From Candidatus Amarobacillus elongatus (GTDB lineage: Bacteria > Chloroflexota > Dehalococcoidia > Tepidiformales > Tepidiformaceae), in the NCBI GenBank assembly GCA_016703545.1, contig JADJBX010000001.1, positions 643,186 through 707,185 on the forward strand: a DNA stretch of 64,000 nucleotides. Reading direction: 5' to 3'. How positions within the stretch are numbered: the first letter of the stretch is position 1; each line of letters starts with the position of its first letter. The notes beneath the pieces are model-generated. The model saw only the letters and a list, made by a program, of their open reading frames with translations. It searched no databases and was not told the origin of the DNA. A program made the translations under genes and the position numbers. Positions 10,463-18,420 of this stretch are shown here, one piece after another.

Positions 10463-11169
10463 CTGGAGGGTGTGGCGGCCGGGTACGGCACCACCTTCGA
10501 ACTGCGCGGCGTGAGCTTCACGGCGCGCGGGGCGACGTCGTTGGGCTGATCGGCGCGAACGGCAGCGGCAAGAGCACGCTGCTCAAGGCGATCGCGGGGG
10601 TGCTGCCGACACGCTCGGGCACGGTGACGCTCGATGGGGCGAACGTCCGCGAACACGCCGCACGGGTCGCCTTCGTGCCACAACGGGAGGACGTGAACTG
10701 GGACTTCCCGGTGACGGCGCGGGATGTCGTGCTCATGGGCCGCTACCGCATGGCCGGATGGTTCCGCCGCCCCGGCCGCGACGACGTGCGGCGGGCCGAG
10801 GCGGCGCTGGAGCGCATAAGGCTCGCGGGCATGGGGAACCGGCACATCAGCCAGTTCAGCGGTGGCCAGCAGCAGCGCATCTTCCTTGCGCGCGCGATCG
10901 TGCAGGAGCCGGCGGTCATCCTGCTGGACGAGCCGTTCACCGGAATCGACGCCCAGAACCGCGAGGTGCTGCACGGCGCGATCAGCGATTTCGCCGCATC
11001 GGGGATGGTCGTGCTGATGGCGACCCATGACCTGGACGAGGTGGCGCAGACCTGTTCGCACGTGTGCTGCCTGCGAGGGCGGCTCGTCGCGTTCGGGCCA
11101 ACGGCGACGACCTATACCCCCGAGAACATGCGCGCGACCTTCGGCGGCCAGGTGGCGGTGTTCGCATGA
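10463..11169 (+). pseudogene. znuC: Metal ABC transporter ATP-binding protein (ZnuC-like); frameshifted as sequenced
   Basis: Walker A GANGSGKST, signature FSGGQQQR and Walker B ILLDEP are in the frame of ORF 10300..11169. The obligatory N-terminal strand LELEGVAAGYGTTFELRGVSFTAR is in another frame that stops at 10547-10549. The two frames join if the G4 run at 10529-10532 is G5 (..FTARGGDVVGLIGANGSGKS). The start codon is uncertain (CTG 10463 or GTG 10472). Confidence 0.8.
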
Positions 11170-12056
11170 ACGCGCTGACGGAGCCGTTGGAGTACGCCTT
11201 CATGCAGCGGGCACTGATCGAGATCGTGCTCGTGGGGTCGCTCTGCGGGCTGGTGGGGTGCTTCGTGGTGCTTCGGGGGCTGGCGTTCATCGGGGACGCA
11301 CTCGCGCACGCGGTCTTCCCCGGGGTCGTGCTCTCGTACATGGCCGAGAAGAGCATCCTCATCGGCGCGTTCGTGTTCGGTGCGTTCACGGCGCTGGGGG
11401 TCGGCATCCTGGCGCGCAGCCGGCGGGTGAGCGAGGACTCGGCGATCGGGGTGATCTTCGCGGCGTTTTTCGCCGTCGGCGTGGTGCTCATCAGCCGCGA
11501 AGCGGGGTTCAAGAAGGACCTGGGTTCGCTGCTGTTCGGGAACGTGCTCGGCGTTTCGCAGAGCGACGTGATGTGGACGGGGATCATCGCGGCGGTGGTG
11601 GCGGGGCTCGTGCTGCTCTTCCTGAAGGAGTTCACGCTCGTGGCCTTCGACGCGACGATGGCGCGCGCCGCGGGCTACCCGGTATTCGCGCTCGACCTGC
11701 TTTTGCTCCTGCTGGTGGCGGCGACGATCGTCGCGAGCCTGCAGACGGTGGGCAACATCCCCATTCTCGCGCTCCTCGTAACGCCGCCCGCGACGGCACG
11801 GCTGCTCACCGACCGGCTGGGGCGAATGATGCTGTACAGCATGGCGACGGCAATCGGGAGCGGGATCGTCGGCCTGTACATCTCGTACCACGCCAACACG
11901 GCGGCGGGCGCGACGATCGTGCTGGTTGCGACGGCGGCGTTCGTGGTCGCGTTCGTGGTCGCGCCGGACCATGGGCTGCTCGCGGGGTGGCTACAGGGAC
12001 GCCGCGGCAAGCACCACGTGCACCATTACCACCCCGTCGACGAGGAAGTCGGATAG
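11166..12056 (+). CDS. znuB: Metal ABC transporter permease (ZnuB-like)
   Basis: ATG 11166 overlaps the znuC stop (ATGA). MNALTEPLEYAFMQRALIEIVLVGSLCGLVGCFVVLRGLAFIGDALAHAVFPGV is a typical ABC-3 permease. Confidence 0.88.
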   Translation: MNALTEPLEYAFMQRALIEIVLVGSLCGLVGCFVVLRGLAFIGDALAHAVFPGVVLSYMAEKSILIGAFVFGAFTALGVGILARSRRVSEDSAIGVIFAAFFAVGVVLISREAGFKKDLGSLLFGNVLGVSQSDVMWTGIIAAVVAGLVLLFLKEFTLVAFDATMARAAGYPVFALDLLLLLLVAATIVASLQTVGNIPILALLVTPPATARLLTDRLGRMMLYSMATAIGSGIVGLYISYHANTAAGATIVLVATAAFVVAFVVAPDHGLLAGWLQGRRGKHHVHHYHPVDEEVG

Positions 12057-13572
12057 CGGCGGAAACGGAACGGGCCCGCGGGGTGATCCGCGGGCCCGCA
12101 CGTGGAAAGCCGGGTGCCGTCGTCAGGCGACGGGGCAGGTATCCGGGAGCGAGGTCTCCCATGAGGAAGGCGTCGATGCCGCGGGCGGCCTGGCGGCCTT
12201 CGGCGATCGCCCAGACGATGAGCGACTGGCCGCGCGTCATGTCGCCGGCGGTGAAGACACCCGCGACGCTGGTCATCTTGTTCTCATCGGCGCGGACGTT
12301 GCCGCGTTCCGTGAGTTCGACGCCGAGCTGTTCGAGCATGCCGGGCTTCTCGGGGCCGAGGAAGCCCATGGCGAGGAGGAGGAGGTCGCACTCCTCTTCG
12401 AACTCGGTCCCCGGGATCTCCTTCATCACCGGGCGGCCGTTCTCGTTCACGAATTCGACGCGGATGCCGTGGAGCTTCTTGAGCACGCCGTTTTCGCCGC
12501 TGAGGCGGGTGGTCGAGATTGAGTAGTCACGGGTACCGCCTTCTTCGTGCGCGGAGGAAACGCGGTAGACCATCGGGAAGCTCGGCCACGGCTGCGTCTC
12601 CGGGCGGCTCGAAGGCGGCTTCGGCAGCAGCTCGTATTGCAGGACTTCAGTCGCGCCCTGGCGGAGGGCGGTGCCGAGGCAGTCGGCGCCGGTGTCGCCG
12701 CCGCCGAGGATGATGACGCGCTTGCCCTTCGCGGAGATGAATTCGCCCTCGGGGATTTCGTCGCCCGCGTTCCGCTTGTTCTGCTGCGTCAGGTACTCCA
12801 TCGCAAAGTGGACGCCCTTGAGGTCACGGCCTTCGACGGGGAGGTTGCGGGGGTTGGCGGCGCCGCCGGCGAGGCAGACGGCATCGAACTGGGTTTGCAG
12901 TTCGCGCACGTCCATGTCGACGCCCATGTGCACGCCAGGCTTGAAGGTGACGCCCTCGGCCTCCATCTGCGCGAGGCGGCGGTCGAGGAAGCGCTTCTCC
13001 ATCTTGAAATCCGGGATGCCGTAGCGGAGGAGGCCGCCGATGCGGTCGTCGCGTTCGAAGACGGTCACGTCGTGGCCGGCGCGGGCGAGCTGCTGCGCGC
13101 AGGCGAGGCCGGCGGGGCCGGAGCCGATGACGGCGACGGTCTTGCCGGTGCGGAAGGCGGCGGGCTGCGGCTTCACCCAGCCCTCGTCCCAGGCGCGCTC
13201 GATGATCGTGAGCTCGACCTGCTTGATGGTCACCGGGTCGTTGTTGATGCCGAGGACGCAGGCGGATTCGCAGGGCGCCGGGCAGAGGCGGCCGGTGAAC
13301 TCGGGGAAGTTGTTGGTGGCGTGCAGGCGGGCGATCGCCTCCTGCCAGCGGTCCCGGTACACGAGGTCGTTCCAGTCCGGGATGATGTTCCCGACGGGGC
13401 AGCCCTGGTGGCAGAAGGGGATGCCGCAGTCCATGCAGCGGGCGGCCTGGTCGCGAAGGCGCTGCCTGGGGAAGTCCTCATAGACCTCGAGCCAGTCGTG
13501 AACGCGCTCGCCCACGGGGCGGCGGGTGGGAGTCTCGCGGGAGAACTCCATGAAACCGGTTGGCTTAGCCAC
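11806..13572 (-). CDS. gltD: Glutamate synthase small (NADPH) subunit GltD; as-sequenced ORF over-runs the probable true stop at 12123
   Basis: GTG 13572 gives (M)[12 protein letters not shown], the canonical GltD N-terminus. Also present: [13 protein letters not shown] Fe-S motifs and [10 protein letters not shown] / GGGDTGADC nucleotide-binding motifs. After ...GIDAFLMG the frame turns Arg/Pro-rich and overlaps znuB by 250 nt. Removing one G from the GGG at 12158-12160 gives ...[14 protein letters not shown]-stop (TGA 12125..12123), just upstream of the hairpin. Confidence 0.88.
12071..12098 (-). terminator. Hairpin terminator between convergent znuB and gltD
   Basis: Perfect 11-bp stem CGGGCCCGCGG/CCGCGGGCCCG with a 6-nt loop. 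On the minus strand it is followed by UUCCGUUUCC. It lies inside the as-sequenced 3' extension of the gltD ORF. Confidence 0.6.
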
Positions 13573-16500
13573 GGGCAGCCCCCACCGCGGGGCCAGCCTG
13601 GCCCTCCTGCTGGCCGGCGTTCTCGCGAGCCTTGCGCTGCTCGTTGAGGACGCGCCGGTATTCGTTCGGCATGACTTTGACGAACCGCTGCGCGGAGGCG
13701 GGCCAATCGACCAGCAGGTCCTGGGCGACGGTGCTCCCGGTGTATTCGATGTGGCGTTCGAGGAGGCCGTGGACGAGTTCGAGGTCTTCGTGCTCTTCCA
13801 GGCGCTCGAGGCTCACCATCTCCATGTTGCAGTGGTTCGCGAAGGTGCCGTCCTCGTCGTAGACGTAGGCGACGCCGCCGCTCATGCCCGCGCCGAAGTT
13901 TCGGCCGGTGCGGCCAATGACGACGACGCGGCCACCGGTCATGTATTCGCAGCAGTGGTCCCCGGTACCTTCGACGACGGCGACGGCACCGGAGTTGCGA
14001 ACGGCGAACCGCTCGCCGGCGACGCCGCGGACGAAGGCGGCGCCGCTCGTCGCACCGTAGAGGGCGACGTTGCCGATGAGGATGTTCGCCTCGGGGACGA
14101 ACGTGGCCTCGGCGGGCGGACGGACGATGATTTTGCCGCCGGAGAGGCCCTTGCCGACGTAGTCGTTGGTGTCGCCGATGAGCCGCAGGGTCATGCCGGA
14201 GGGCACGAAGGCGCCGAAGCTCTGGCCGGCCGAGCCGTGGAAGGTGATGTCGATGGTGTCATCGGGCAGGCCGTTATTGCCGTAGCGGCGGGTGAGCTCG
14301 CTGCCCGTGATCGTGCCGACGGTGCGGTTCACGTTGCGAATCGGGATCTCGAAGGAGACGCGCTCGCTCCGTTCGAGAGCGGGCTCGACGCGCGCGAGGA
14401 TCTCCTGGTCGAGGGCCTTGTCGAGGCCGTGGTCCTGCGGGATGACGCAGCGCGTGGCCACTTCATCGGCGAGGGCCGGGCGGTAGAGGATGGCCGAGAG
14501 GTCCAGCCCCTGGGCCTTCCAGTGATCGACGGCGCGGCGCATATCGAGGATGTCGCTGCGGCCGACCATCTCCTCGAAGCTGCGGAACCCGAGCTGCGCC
14601 ATGTACTCGCGCACTTCCTCGGCGATGAACCGGAAGAAGTTGACGACGTGCTCGGCGCGGCCGGCGAACTTCTCGCGCAGGACCGGGTTCTGGGTGGCGA
14701 TGCCCACCGGGCAGGTGTCGAGGTGGCAGACGCGCATCATGACGCAGCCCATGACGACGAGCGGGGCGGTGGCGAAGCCGAACTCCTCGGCCCCAAGGAG
14801 GGCGCCGATGACGACATCGCGGCCGGTCTTCATCTGGCCATCGACCTGCACGACGATGCGGTCGCGGAGCTTGTTGAGGACGAGCGTCTGCTGGGTCTCG
14901 GCGAGGCCGAGCTCCCACGGGGCGCCGGCGTGCTTGATGGAGGTGAGCGGGCTGGCGCCGGTACCACCGTCGTACCCGGAGATGAGGACGACGTCGGACT
15001 TGGCCTTCGCCACACCCGCGGCGACGGTGCCCACGCCGACCTCGGCCACGAGCTTCACGCTGCACGCGGGCACGCGGGTTGGAGTTCTTGAGGTCGTGGA
15101 TGAGCTGGGCGAGGTCCTCGATGGAGTAGATGTCGTGGTGCGGGGGCGGACTGATGAGGCCGACGCCGGGGGTGGCGTGGCGCACCTCGGCGATCCACGG
15201 GTAGACCTTGTGGCCGGGAGCTGGCCGCCCTCGCCGGGCTTGGCGCCCTGCGCCATCTTGATCTGCAGCTCATCGGCGTTGACCAGGTATTCGCTGGTCA
15301 CGCCGAAGCGGCCGGACGCGACCTGCTTGATCGCGCTGCGGCGGAGGTCGCCGTTGGCATCGGGTTGGAAGCGGCGGCGGTCTTCGCCGCCTTCGCCGGT
15401 GTTGCTGCGGCCGCCGATGCGGTTCATGGCGATGGCGAGCGTCTCGTGGGCCTCGGCGGAGATGGAGCCGTAGCTCATTGCGCCGGTGGCGAAACGCTTG
15501 AACAGCTGGTCCGCGGATTCCACTTCCTCGATCGGCACGGGCTGGCGGTCGGCCTTGAAATCGAAGAGGCCGCGGAGCGTGGCCATGCGCTCGCTCTGCT
15601 CGTTGACCATGCGCGTGTATTCGCGGAAGACGTCCATCTGCCCCGTGCGCGTCGAATGCTGGAGGCGGAAGACGGTCTCGGGGTTGAAGAGGTGGTACTC
15701 GCCGTCCCGGCGCCACTGGTACTGGCCGCCCCAGTCGAGCTCTTCCAGGCCGCCATCGCGATCGGGGAAGGCGCGCGCGTGGTGGGCCATCGCCTCGACG
15801 GCGACCTCGTCGATGCCGATGCCGCCGATGCGCGAAACGGTCTTCGTGAAGTAGCGGTCGATGAACTCGTCGTTCAGGCCGATGGCTTCGAAGATCTGGG
15901 CGCCGCGGTAGCTCTGGATGGTCGAGATGCCCATCTTCGACATGACCTTGACGACGCCCTTCTTGATGGCCTTGAGGTAGTGCTTCGTGGCCTCGTCCGG
16001 GGTCATCTGGACTTCGAGGTAGCCCTCGTCCAGGAGGTCGTGGATGGTGTCGATGGCGAGGTACGGGTTGATGGCGCCGGCGCCGTAGCCGATGAGCAGG
16101 GCGAAGTGGTGCACTTCGCGCGCTTCGCCGGTTTCGAGGATGAGGCCGACCTGGGTGCGCTTCTTTTCGCGCACGAGGTGGTTGTGCAGGCCGGCGACGG
16201 CGAGCAGCGCGGGAATGGGCGCGGATTCGGCGGTGACGCCGCGGTCGCTGAGGATGAGGACCTTGGCGCCGTTGGCGATGGCGCGGTCGGCCTGCGCGTA
16301 CAGCTCCTCCATGGCCGGGGCGAGCCCGGCGGGGCCGGCCTTGGCGGGGAAGAGGATGGGCAGGACGGTGGCGCGGAGCGCGGAATCGCGCAGCGCCTTG
16401 AACTGCGCCAACTGCTCGTTATCGATGAACGGCGACTCGAGGCTGATGAGGTGGCAGCTTTCGGGCTCGGAATCGAGGAGGTTGCCCTCGGGACCGATGA

Positions 16501-18136
16501 CCGTCTTCACGGAGGTCACGAGCTCTTCGCGAATGGCATCGAGCGGCGGGTTCGTGACCTGGGCGAAGAGCTGTTTGAAGTAGTTGTAGAGCGGCTGGGG
16601 GCGGTCGGAGAGCACCGCCAGCGGCGTATCCGTGCCCATGGAGCCGAGGGCTTCCTCGGAGTTGCGCGCCATGGGGGTGAGGACGTACTTGAGGTCCTCG
16701 ACGGTGTAGCCGAAGGCGAGCTGCTGTTCGAGCAGCTGCTTGCCGCCGAAGGAGGCCACGGGCTCGCCGGGAGGGGCCGCATCGAGCGGGAGAAGGTTGT
16801 TCTTGAGCCACTCGCCGTAAGGGCGGTCGGTGGCGAGCTTATTCTTGAGTTCCGCGTCATCGATGATGCGGCCTTCTTCGAGGCTGACGAGGAACATCTT
16901 GCCCGGCTGCAGGCGGCCCTTGTGGAGCACGCGCTCGGGCTCGATGGGGAGCACGCCGACTTCGGACGCCATGATCACCAGGTCGTCCTTGGTGACGTAG
17001 TAGCGCGAAGGGCGGAGGCCGTTGCGGTCGAGGACGGCACCGATGTTCTTGCCATCGGTGAAGGCGACGGAGGCGGGGCCGTCCCACGGCTCCATCAGGC
17101 AGCTGTGGTATTCGTAGAACGCCTTCTTCTCGGCGCTCATGGACTCATGGCCGCTCCACGCCTCGGGGATGAGCATCATCATCGCGTGCGGGAGCGGGCG
17201 GCCGGCGAGCACGAGCAGCTCGAGGGCGTTATCGAGGCAGGCGGTGTCGCTCCCCTTCTCGTCGATGATGGGGAGGATCTTGTGGATGTCGTCGAAAAGC
17301 GGCGAATCCATGAGCGCTTCGCGCGCGGTCATCCAGTTGATGTTGCCGCGCAGGGTGTTGATTTCGCCGTTGTGCGAAACCATGCGGTAGGGGTGCGCGA
17401 GCCGCCAGCTGGGGAAGGTGTTCGTGCTGAAGCGGGAGTGGAACATCGCCAGCGCGCTGATTAGGCGGGGGTCGCCCAGGTCCGGGAAGTACGCGCGGAG
17501 CTGGGTGGCCGTGAGCATGCCCTTATAGACGAGGGTGCGGCAGCTGAGGCTGGCGAAGTAGAAGTATTCGTGGTCTTCGATGCCGTAGCGCGCGATCGCC
17601 TTTTCGAACCGCTTGCGGATGACATAGAGCTTGCGTTCGAAGGCGTCGTCATCGGCGACCTGGCTGTCCCGGCCAATGAAGACGTGCAGCATGGACGGCT
17701 CGACGGCGCGGGCGGTGGCGCCGACGTCGCTGTTGTTGGTGGGCACATCGCGCCAGCCGAGGAGGTGCTGGCCCTCTTCCTCGACGATCGCCGTGAGGAG
17801 AGCCTGCGCCTGCTGGCGGGCGCGGGGATTGGGAGCCGCGAAAAAGAGGCCGACACCGTAGTGGCCGGCCTCGGGGAGGCGGATGCCAAGGGCGGCGCAT
17901 TCACGACGGAAGAACTCGTGCGGGACCTGGATGAGGATGCCGGCGCCATCGCCGGTGTTCACTTCGCAGCCGCAGGCGCCGCGGTGGTCCAGGTTCTCGA
18001 GGGCAGTGAGGCCGTCGGTGACGATCTGATGGGAACGCTGTCCCTTCAGGTGCACGATGAAGCCGACGCCGCAGCTGTCGTGCTCGTGCCGAGGGTCATA
18101 GAGGCCCTGGGGGCCGGGCTGTCCGGGGTGCACCAT
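13565..18136 (-). CDS. gltB: Glutamate synthase large subunit GltB (contains a ~50-codon out-of-frame patch, see findings)
   Basis: ATG 18136 gives [28 protein letters not shown] (Ntn amidotransferase Cys1 context). The central, FMN and GXGXG domains are recognisable throughout. Its stop overlaps the gltD start by 8 nt. Confidence 0.92.
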
Positions 18137-18227
18137 GTTCTTCAATCCAGCCGGGACTCCCAAACCGTACCGATCTCGGGGAATGCGCGTAGCCGAGGCG
18201 GTGCCGTTGTGCGGCTGTCTCCCGCGA

Positions 18228-18245
18228 TTGTGAAACAATTCCCAA
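18228..18245. promoter_or_regulatory. Rex-operator-like site in the gltB / aminotransferase divergent region
   Basis: TTGTGAAACAATTCCCAA versus the published Rex operator consensus TTGTGAA-N4-TTCACAA. The left half matches 7/7 and the right half 6/7. It lies 92-109 nt upstream of the gltB ATG. Confidence 0.5.
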
Positions 18246-18420
18246 AGTATGAGGTGCGGCTTGGTGAGCCCCCAGTATAACAGCCGCGTCAACTCGCCCG
18301 TCGAGGTCTGATTGTTTCGGGCACATTAACTCCAATACGCCGCATCGCCCCCGCTTATGACGCGTCGAGGAGGCTCGGCCGCCACCGTATACTGGCGGGT
18401 ATTCGCTCCGGAGGACCGCC

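Follow-up and report, generated by a model that had tools for sequence, protein, structure and literature searches.

The gltB locus and its displaced block

The window, by which we mean the whole stretch of 64,000 nucleotides that was analyzed, carries on its minus strand a gene for the large subunit of glutamate synthase (gltB), directly followed by gltD. The minus-strand ORF that holds gltB (13565..18292) is open throughout, and translation probably begins at the ATG at 18136, so that the gene spans 13565..18136 and has 1523 codons as assembled; this assignment is based on Pfam domains and on the alignment from M53 of P0001 with P0003, a protein of 1523 aa encoded on a JGI metagenome contig. 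The first-pass annotation had described the 1523-codon ORF as uninterrupted, and both the open frame and its length, equal to that of the conspecific P0003, agree with this description. All four domains expected of a GOGAT large subunit, namely GATase_2, Glu_syn_central, Glu_synthase (FMN), and GXGXG, were identified in GltB by Pfam, each well beyond the cut-off, with E-values of 2e-189 to 3.5e-88. The contiguous in-frame core of the FMN domain (GHKV...), in turn, is missing from GltB as assembled and lies in another frame, which we attribute to an error of assembly rather than to the organism.

The genome comprises 3.49 Mb in 21 contigs (the three largest of 872, 613, and 497 kb) with zero Ns, a completeness of about 90%, and a GC content of 68%; from the number and sizes of the contigs, the completeness, and the GC content, we regard it as a metagenome-assembled genome (MAG). 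The named protein matches of GltB are mainly from MAGs of Dehalococcoidia/Chloroflexota, and at least nine studies contributed runs with near-identical DNA, the samples being activated sludge, wastewater, sludge, and biofilm. An ELFV-type dehydrogenase is encoded elsewhere in the genome (C5:100709-101407), so the cell might survive without GOGAT.

Read as assembled, the GltB translation passes from GEGGQLP into 51 out-of-frame residues, many of them Ser, Thr, Pro, or Arg, which end in TRVPAC, and then resumes with SVKLVAEVG. The displaced block (15064..15213, minus strand) comprises about 51 codons in the wrong frame, as indicated by the translations, the codon scan, Pfam, and the substitutions; the canonical FMN-domain peptide that GltB lacks is encoded in the overlapping frame, as part of a spurious ORF at 14463..15185 on the same strand that was recognized from the ORF list and its translation. 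A six-frame Pfam search of the genome returned positions 146-207 of the Glu_synthase profile as a separate match of 69 bits in that other frame (C1:658248-658433, corresponding to 15063-15248 of the window), which bears out the claim of the first-pass annotation that this ORF holds the canonical conserved sequence. The block was also recovered independently, at 15059-15217 with an LLR of 58, by a Viterbi scan of codon usage.

The boundaries of the block are two indels of opposite sign. At site 1 (15214..15218, minus strand), one base is missing from a C/G run (ctccc-ggcc, where relatives have cccc or ggg), and the 11 relatives and the conspecific contig L013 are one base longer here, as are contigs of four public runs. 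At site 2 (15062..15063, minus strand), which lies outside any homopolymer, one extra base is present (cgcgtGCagc, where relatives have cgc atc agc) and the original frame is regained; the 11 relatives and L013 are one base shorter, in agreement with contigs of the runs X1 and X13. The first-pass annotation had placed the missing base near 15213-15216 and the extra base near 15061-15064, about 150 nt apart and with the downstream frame preserved. Alignment with the 11 relatives confirmed both events and refined their positions to the run at 15214-15218 and to 15062/15063, with a distance of 152 nt between them. It also served as the ortholog comparison that the annotation had proposed for mapping the discordant block, which proved to be 51 codons long, with all 11 relatives in frame.

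Relatives, a conspecific contig, and contigs from public runs

Of the relatives in the DNA alignment, four loci show 86-91% identity, including three from the same genus, and seven are more distant. Both sites are in frame in 11 of 11, whether of the same genus, family, or class. P0003 was the best protein match; it differs from GltB of the window at seven positions outside the block (about 99.5% amino acid identity) and is canonical inside it. The contig that encodes it, L013, comes from an independent JGI metagenome and belongs to the same species, with 98.6% nucleotide identity over 24 kb (3567-27680 of the window). With its full domain order, its neighboring gltD, and these seven differences from the conspecific outside the block, the gene resembles a standard GltB (the alpha chain of Fd- or NADPH-GOGAT), but it departs from one in that about positions 146-207 of the Glu_synthase profile are out of frame as assembled. 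The as-read block was not found in any full-length protein of a collection of 5.8 billion proteins, where the best match was again the canonical P0003. Short proteins containing the out-of-frame peptide were considered as support for the as-read sequence and were rejected; these were pieces of gltB from other assemblies rich in errors, which enter and leave the wrong frame at different points, and they show only that out-of-frame translations of conserved DNA resemble each other.

The substitution pattern within the block points in the same direction. Compared with L013, all five differences fall at third positions of the canonical frame, where they are synonymous, and each alters an amino acid in the as-read frame; the same holds for 7/7 and 8/8 differences from the same-genus loci L002 and L004, respectively, and the third same-genus relative, L003, shows seven synonymous and two non-synonymous changes. 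The substitutions relative to L013, L002, and L004 gave no hint that selection on the block had been relaxed or changed. Since these substitutions leave the canonical peptide unchanged, the block has been kept in its canonical GltB form until now.

We further compared the whole 4.7-kb gene with Logan contigs of four runs (X1, X2, X9, and X13) from four sludge or wastewater studies, representing other or unknown samples. The only indels of these contigs relative to the window were at 15060/15063 (minus one base) and at 15215/15218 (plus one base), and they were always frame-restoring. At site 1, the additional base behind 15215/15218 was present in contigs of all four runs, and the form with a G behind 15215 (ctc ccc ggc, which matches the genus) had a depth similar to that of the organism's own sequence in X1, X2, and X9. 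At site 2, removal of one base at 15063 was reported only for X1 (12.4/12.4 depth) and X13 (16.3/30.1); in X9 and X2, contigs with the allele of the window (15065-15072) carried no reported deletion at 15063, and their coverage apparently ends between 15060 and 15063. In the bins of the block, contig depth rose to between several-fold and tens of times the baseline of the gene, which shows that many other members of the community share at least 95% identity over this region. Thus, as is to be expected of consensus errors, both indels are absent from independent same-species sequence, namely from L013 with its protein P0003, from the contigs of four runs at site 1, and from those of two runs at site 2.

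Two alleles of the same species were observed at 15064-15074, cgt gcc cgc gt in the window, X9, and X2, and cgg gct cgc atc in L013, X1, and X13; they differ by three synonymous changes and a Val/Ile exchange, and they adjoin the extra base. Two exact-pattern scans of JGI metagenome contigs for the allele of the window, with zero to two bases at the disputed position, returned no matches.

Frame-disrupting indels elsewhere in the assembly

Over the 24 kb shared with L013, the window shows 11 indels, seven intergenic and four coding, and the four coding ones (two in gltB, one in gltD, and one in an ABC-transporter ATPase gene) are all specific to this assembly when compared with L013, G003, and G004. 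In gltD (ORF 11806..13572, minus strand), a deletion of two bases at 12152..12156 changes tctctc, as retained in all three comparators, to tctc about 11 codons ahead of the stop, and the ORF consequently continues for about 55 codons in the wrong frame; the codon-model scan placed this frame break at 12117. In the ATPase gene (plus strand), one base that is present in the same three sequences has been lost from a G run (GGGGG to GGGG, 10526..10530) immediately before Walker A, some 19 codons from the start of the gene, and the N-terminus and apparent start are altered. Further assembly-specific deletions of one or two bases relative to G003 and G004 are probable at about 33760, 30615, and 1349, where the proteins of relatives match the window in two frames and the alignments are more divergent.

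The damage extends to essential genes. The genes rpoB and rpoC, each present in a single copy, lie at C1:709,300-717,900, 2-11 kb past the end of the window, and are divided among at least five frames, with the Pfam domains Rpb2_6, Rpb1_3, and Rpb1_5 cut at 320/315, 60/64, and 46/56, respectively. Compared with G003, five net one-base deletions were located (C1:710828, ~711520, 713917, 714373, and 716590), two of them reductions of GGG to GG, and the tail of rpoB continues into rpoC as a single ORF of 1228 codons. Because no organism lives with both genes in pieces, these indels must be consensus errors. A gene for a YmdB-like phosphoesterase (C1:302283-303044) contains indels of -2, -1, and +1 relative to four relatives; the -1/+1 pair is 151 nt apart and puts the conserved metal-binding core (DFHAEATSEK...GTHTHVPT) out of frame, and the ORF is still open. 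Another -1/+1 pair, 105 nt apart, is found in a PAS-domain gene, and about ten assembly-specific indels of one to three bases are crowded into 2 kb of a small contig (C21:17433-19584). Indels equivalent to those of gltB, as consensus errors would leave behind, are therefore present elsewhere in the assembly, in rpoB, rpoC, gltD, the ABC ATPase, YmdB, the PAS-domain gene, and C21, and include hits in essential single-copy genes. The blocks at C1:329385 and C8:33928, which lie in divergent regions with longer indels, were left out of this tally.

For a genome-wide estimate, a codon-usage model was trained on the genome and a three-frame Viterbi path was computed along every long ORF. This approach replaced a tblastn frame-switch scan of stop-to-stop ORFs, which was dropped as noisy since upstream non-coding DNA was translated along with the genes. 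The scan predicted 146 in-gene frame breaks in 3.49 Mb, at which a well-supported frame ends within an open ORF, and the original frame is regained in 29 of these; four of the predicted breaks fall in rpoB/rpoC, 4-10 kb past the window. The densest breaks were found on C21 and on the small contigs C4, C19, and C17, with 11-31 per 100 kb versus about 4 on the large contigs. As a control, 140 kb of DNA from relatives contained a single break, which is common to one of the three in the window. That break, at about 39283 in a minus-strand gene, follows codon 368 and occurs at the same codon in the same-genus genome G004; the break is thus either natural to this gene or falsely called by the model, and is no assembly error. 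The view that many of the top internal alternative-frame blocks are compensated pairs was rejected, since only about 12 of 42 are free of a stop in the alternative frame; where the alternative frame ends in a stop, the block reflects a gene boundary or an uncompensated break.

Origin of the compensated frameshift

Taken together, these comparisons make it very probable that the two indels of gltB are errors of the assembly consensus and that gltB in the organism is ordinary and intact, as judged from assembled sequences. The first-pass annotation had left the choice between a local consensus error and an inactive enzyme that still looks intact; the relatives, the conspecific contig, the run contigs, the substitutions, and the other frame errors all favored the former, and the latter gained no positive support. 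Two real and very recent indels would scramble the segment of the FMN and substrate site and leave GOGAT inactive, with glutamate obtained through a dehydrogenase or by uptake, and this is how the deposited sequence itself reads; the ELFV-family dehydrogenase at C5:100709-101407 would fit such a loss, and no contig of X9 or X2 was seen to contradict site 2. However, the same species from an independent sample has the canonical sequence, the site-1 indels of the contigs from all four runs add a base, and the changes within the block are synonymous in the canonical frame relative to L013, L002, and L004, so that the event would have to be extremely recent. An exact frame-restoring second indel in a dead gene with 4.6 kb otherwise undamaged is improbable in itself, and the essential rpoB and rpoC are broken likewise in the same assembly. 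Hence we consider a real inactivation quite improbable, and there is only a very slight chance that the window represents a wastewater Chloroflexota (Dehalococcoidia-like) with a very recent double frameshift in the FMN site of its only GOGAT, which would depend on GDH or on scavenged glutamate and have its gene scored as intact. Genuine compensated frameshifts recur in orthologs or in independently obtained isolates, within segments that tolerate change. The gltB pair resembles them in its two closely spaced indels, one of each sign, that flank a novel peptide, but no part of the enzyme is more conserved than the block, which is unique to this sequence and has substitutions that are synonymous in the canonical frame.

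Intermediate readings, in which one indel is real (for example through strain heterogeneity at site 2) and the other erroneous, or in which two strains living side by side were merged into a chimeric consensus over the block, draw on three SNPs relative to L013 within 10 nt beside the extra base, on the two local alleles in the runs, and on the excess depth over the block, several-fold to tens of times baseline with many community members at least 95% identical. A single real indel would nevertheless truncate gltB, no independent contig was seen to carry either indel, and a chimeric consensus would still be an artefact of assembly; we therefore regard these readings as very improbable. Programmed recoding, in which the ribosome or RNA polymerase shifts twice and the canonical peptide is made, has nothing in its favor except that the other frame encodes this peptide. 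Recoding sites are conserved, and yet the arrangement occurs in 0 of the 11 relatives; moreover, many unrelated genes of the assembly show the same pattern, randomly placed, and the probability of this explanation is vanishingly small.

For two consensus errors as the preferred explanation, the contiguity of the assembly, the excess of deletions, the sites in G/C runs, and the clustering suggest an un- or imperfectly polished long-read assembly, the platform being deduced from these features. According to one report, the errors that persist in long-read-only assemblies most often concern homopolymer length (PMC8812927), a second describes homopolymer-derived indels in Nanopore genomes and metagenomes that have needed short-read polishing (PMC9262707), and frameshifts that fragment genes are mentioned for long-read assemblies in a third (PMC12007338). 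The indels of the present assembly are like such errors in that they are of one or two bases, mostly deletions, often in G/C homopolymers, hit essential genes, and do not recur in same-species short-read data. The gltB pair differs from the usual case in its opposite signs, in an ORF that stays open and is not flagged by counts of broken genes, and in the position of site 2 outside a homopolymer. The consensus of this highly contiguous MAG from activated sludge or wastewater has retained many indels of one or two bases, mostly deletions, often in G/C runs, and clustered. In gltB, a deletion and an insertion 152 nt apart enclose a stop-free wrong frame, so that gene callers report a single intact ORF; wrong frames are often open for at least 50 codons because the genome has 68% GC. 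Within gltB, nucleotide conservation across the community is highest over the block, and pile-ups from mixed strains and species, together with the two alleles at site 2, may have misled consensus building or polishing.

Thus, we concluded that the double frameshift of gltB is not a biological feature and is of little biological importance. Its consequences are for annotation: compensated pairs of indel errors escape frameshift and pseudogene counts as well as completeness tools, since a long ORF survives, and about 50 nonsense residues enter a database protein within the most conserved segment of the enzyme. The genome appears to carry a hundred or more frame errors, including those in rpoB, rpoC, gltD, and YmdB, and because it appears so rich in them, odd protein features in this genome need comparison with relatives first. 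With regard to the spacing of the compensated pairs, the similar distances in gltB (152 nt) and YmdB (151 nt) raised the possibility of a fixed spacing of about 150 nt as an artefact of short-read length, which was rejected in view of other pairs at 105, 138, and 52 nt. Blocks of 39-53 codons are in excess, and this excess is explainable by detection bias.
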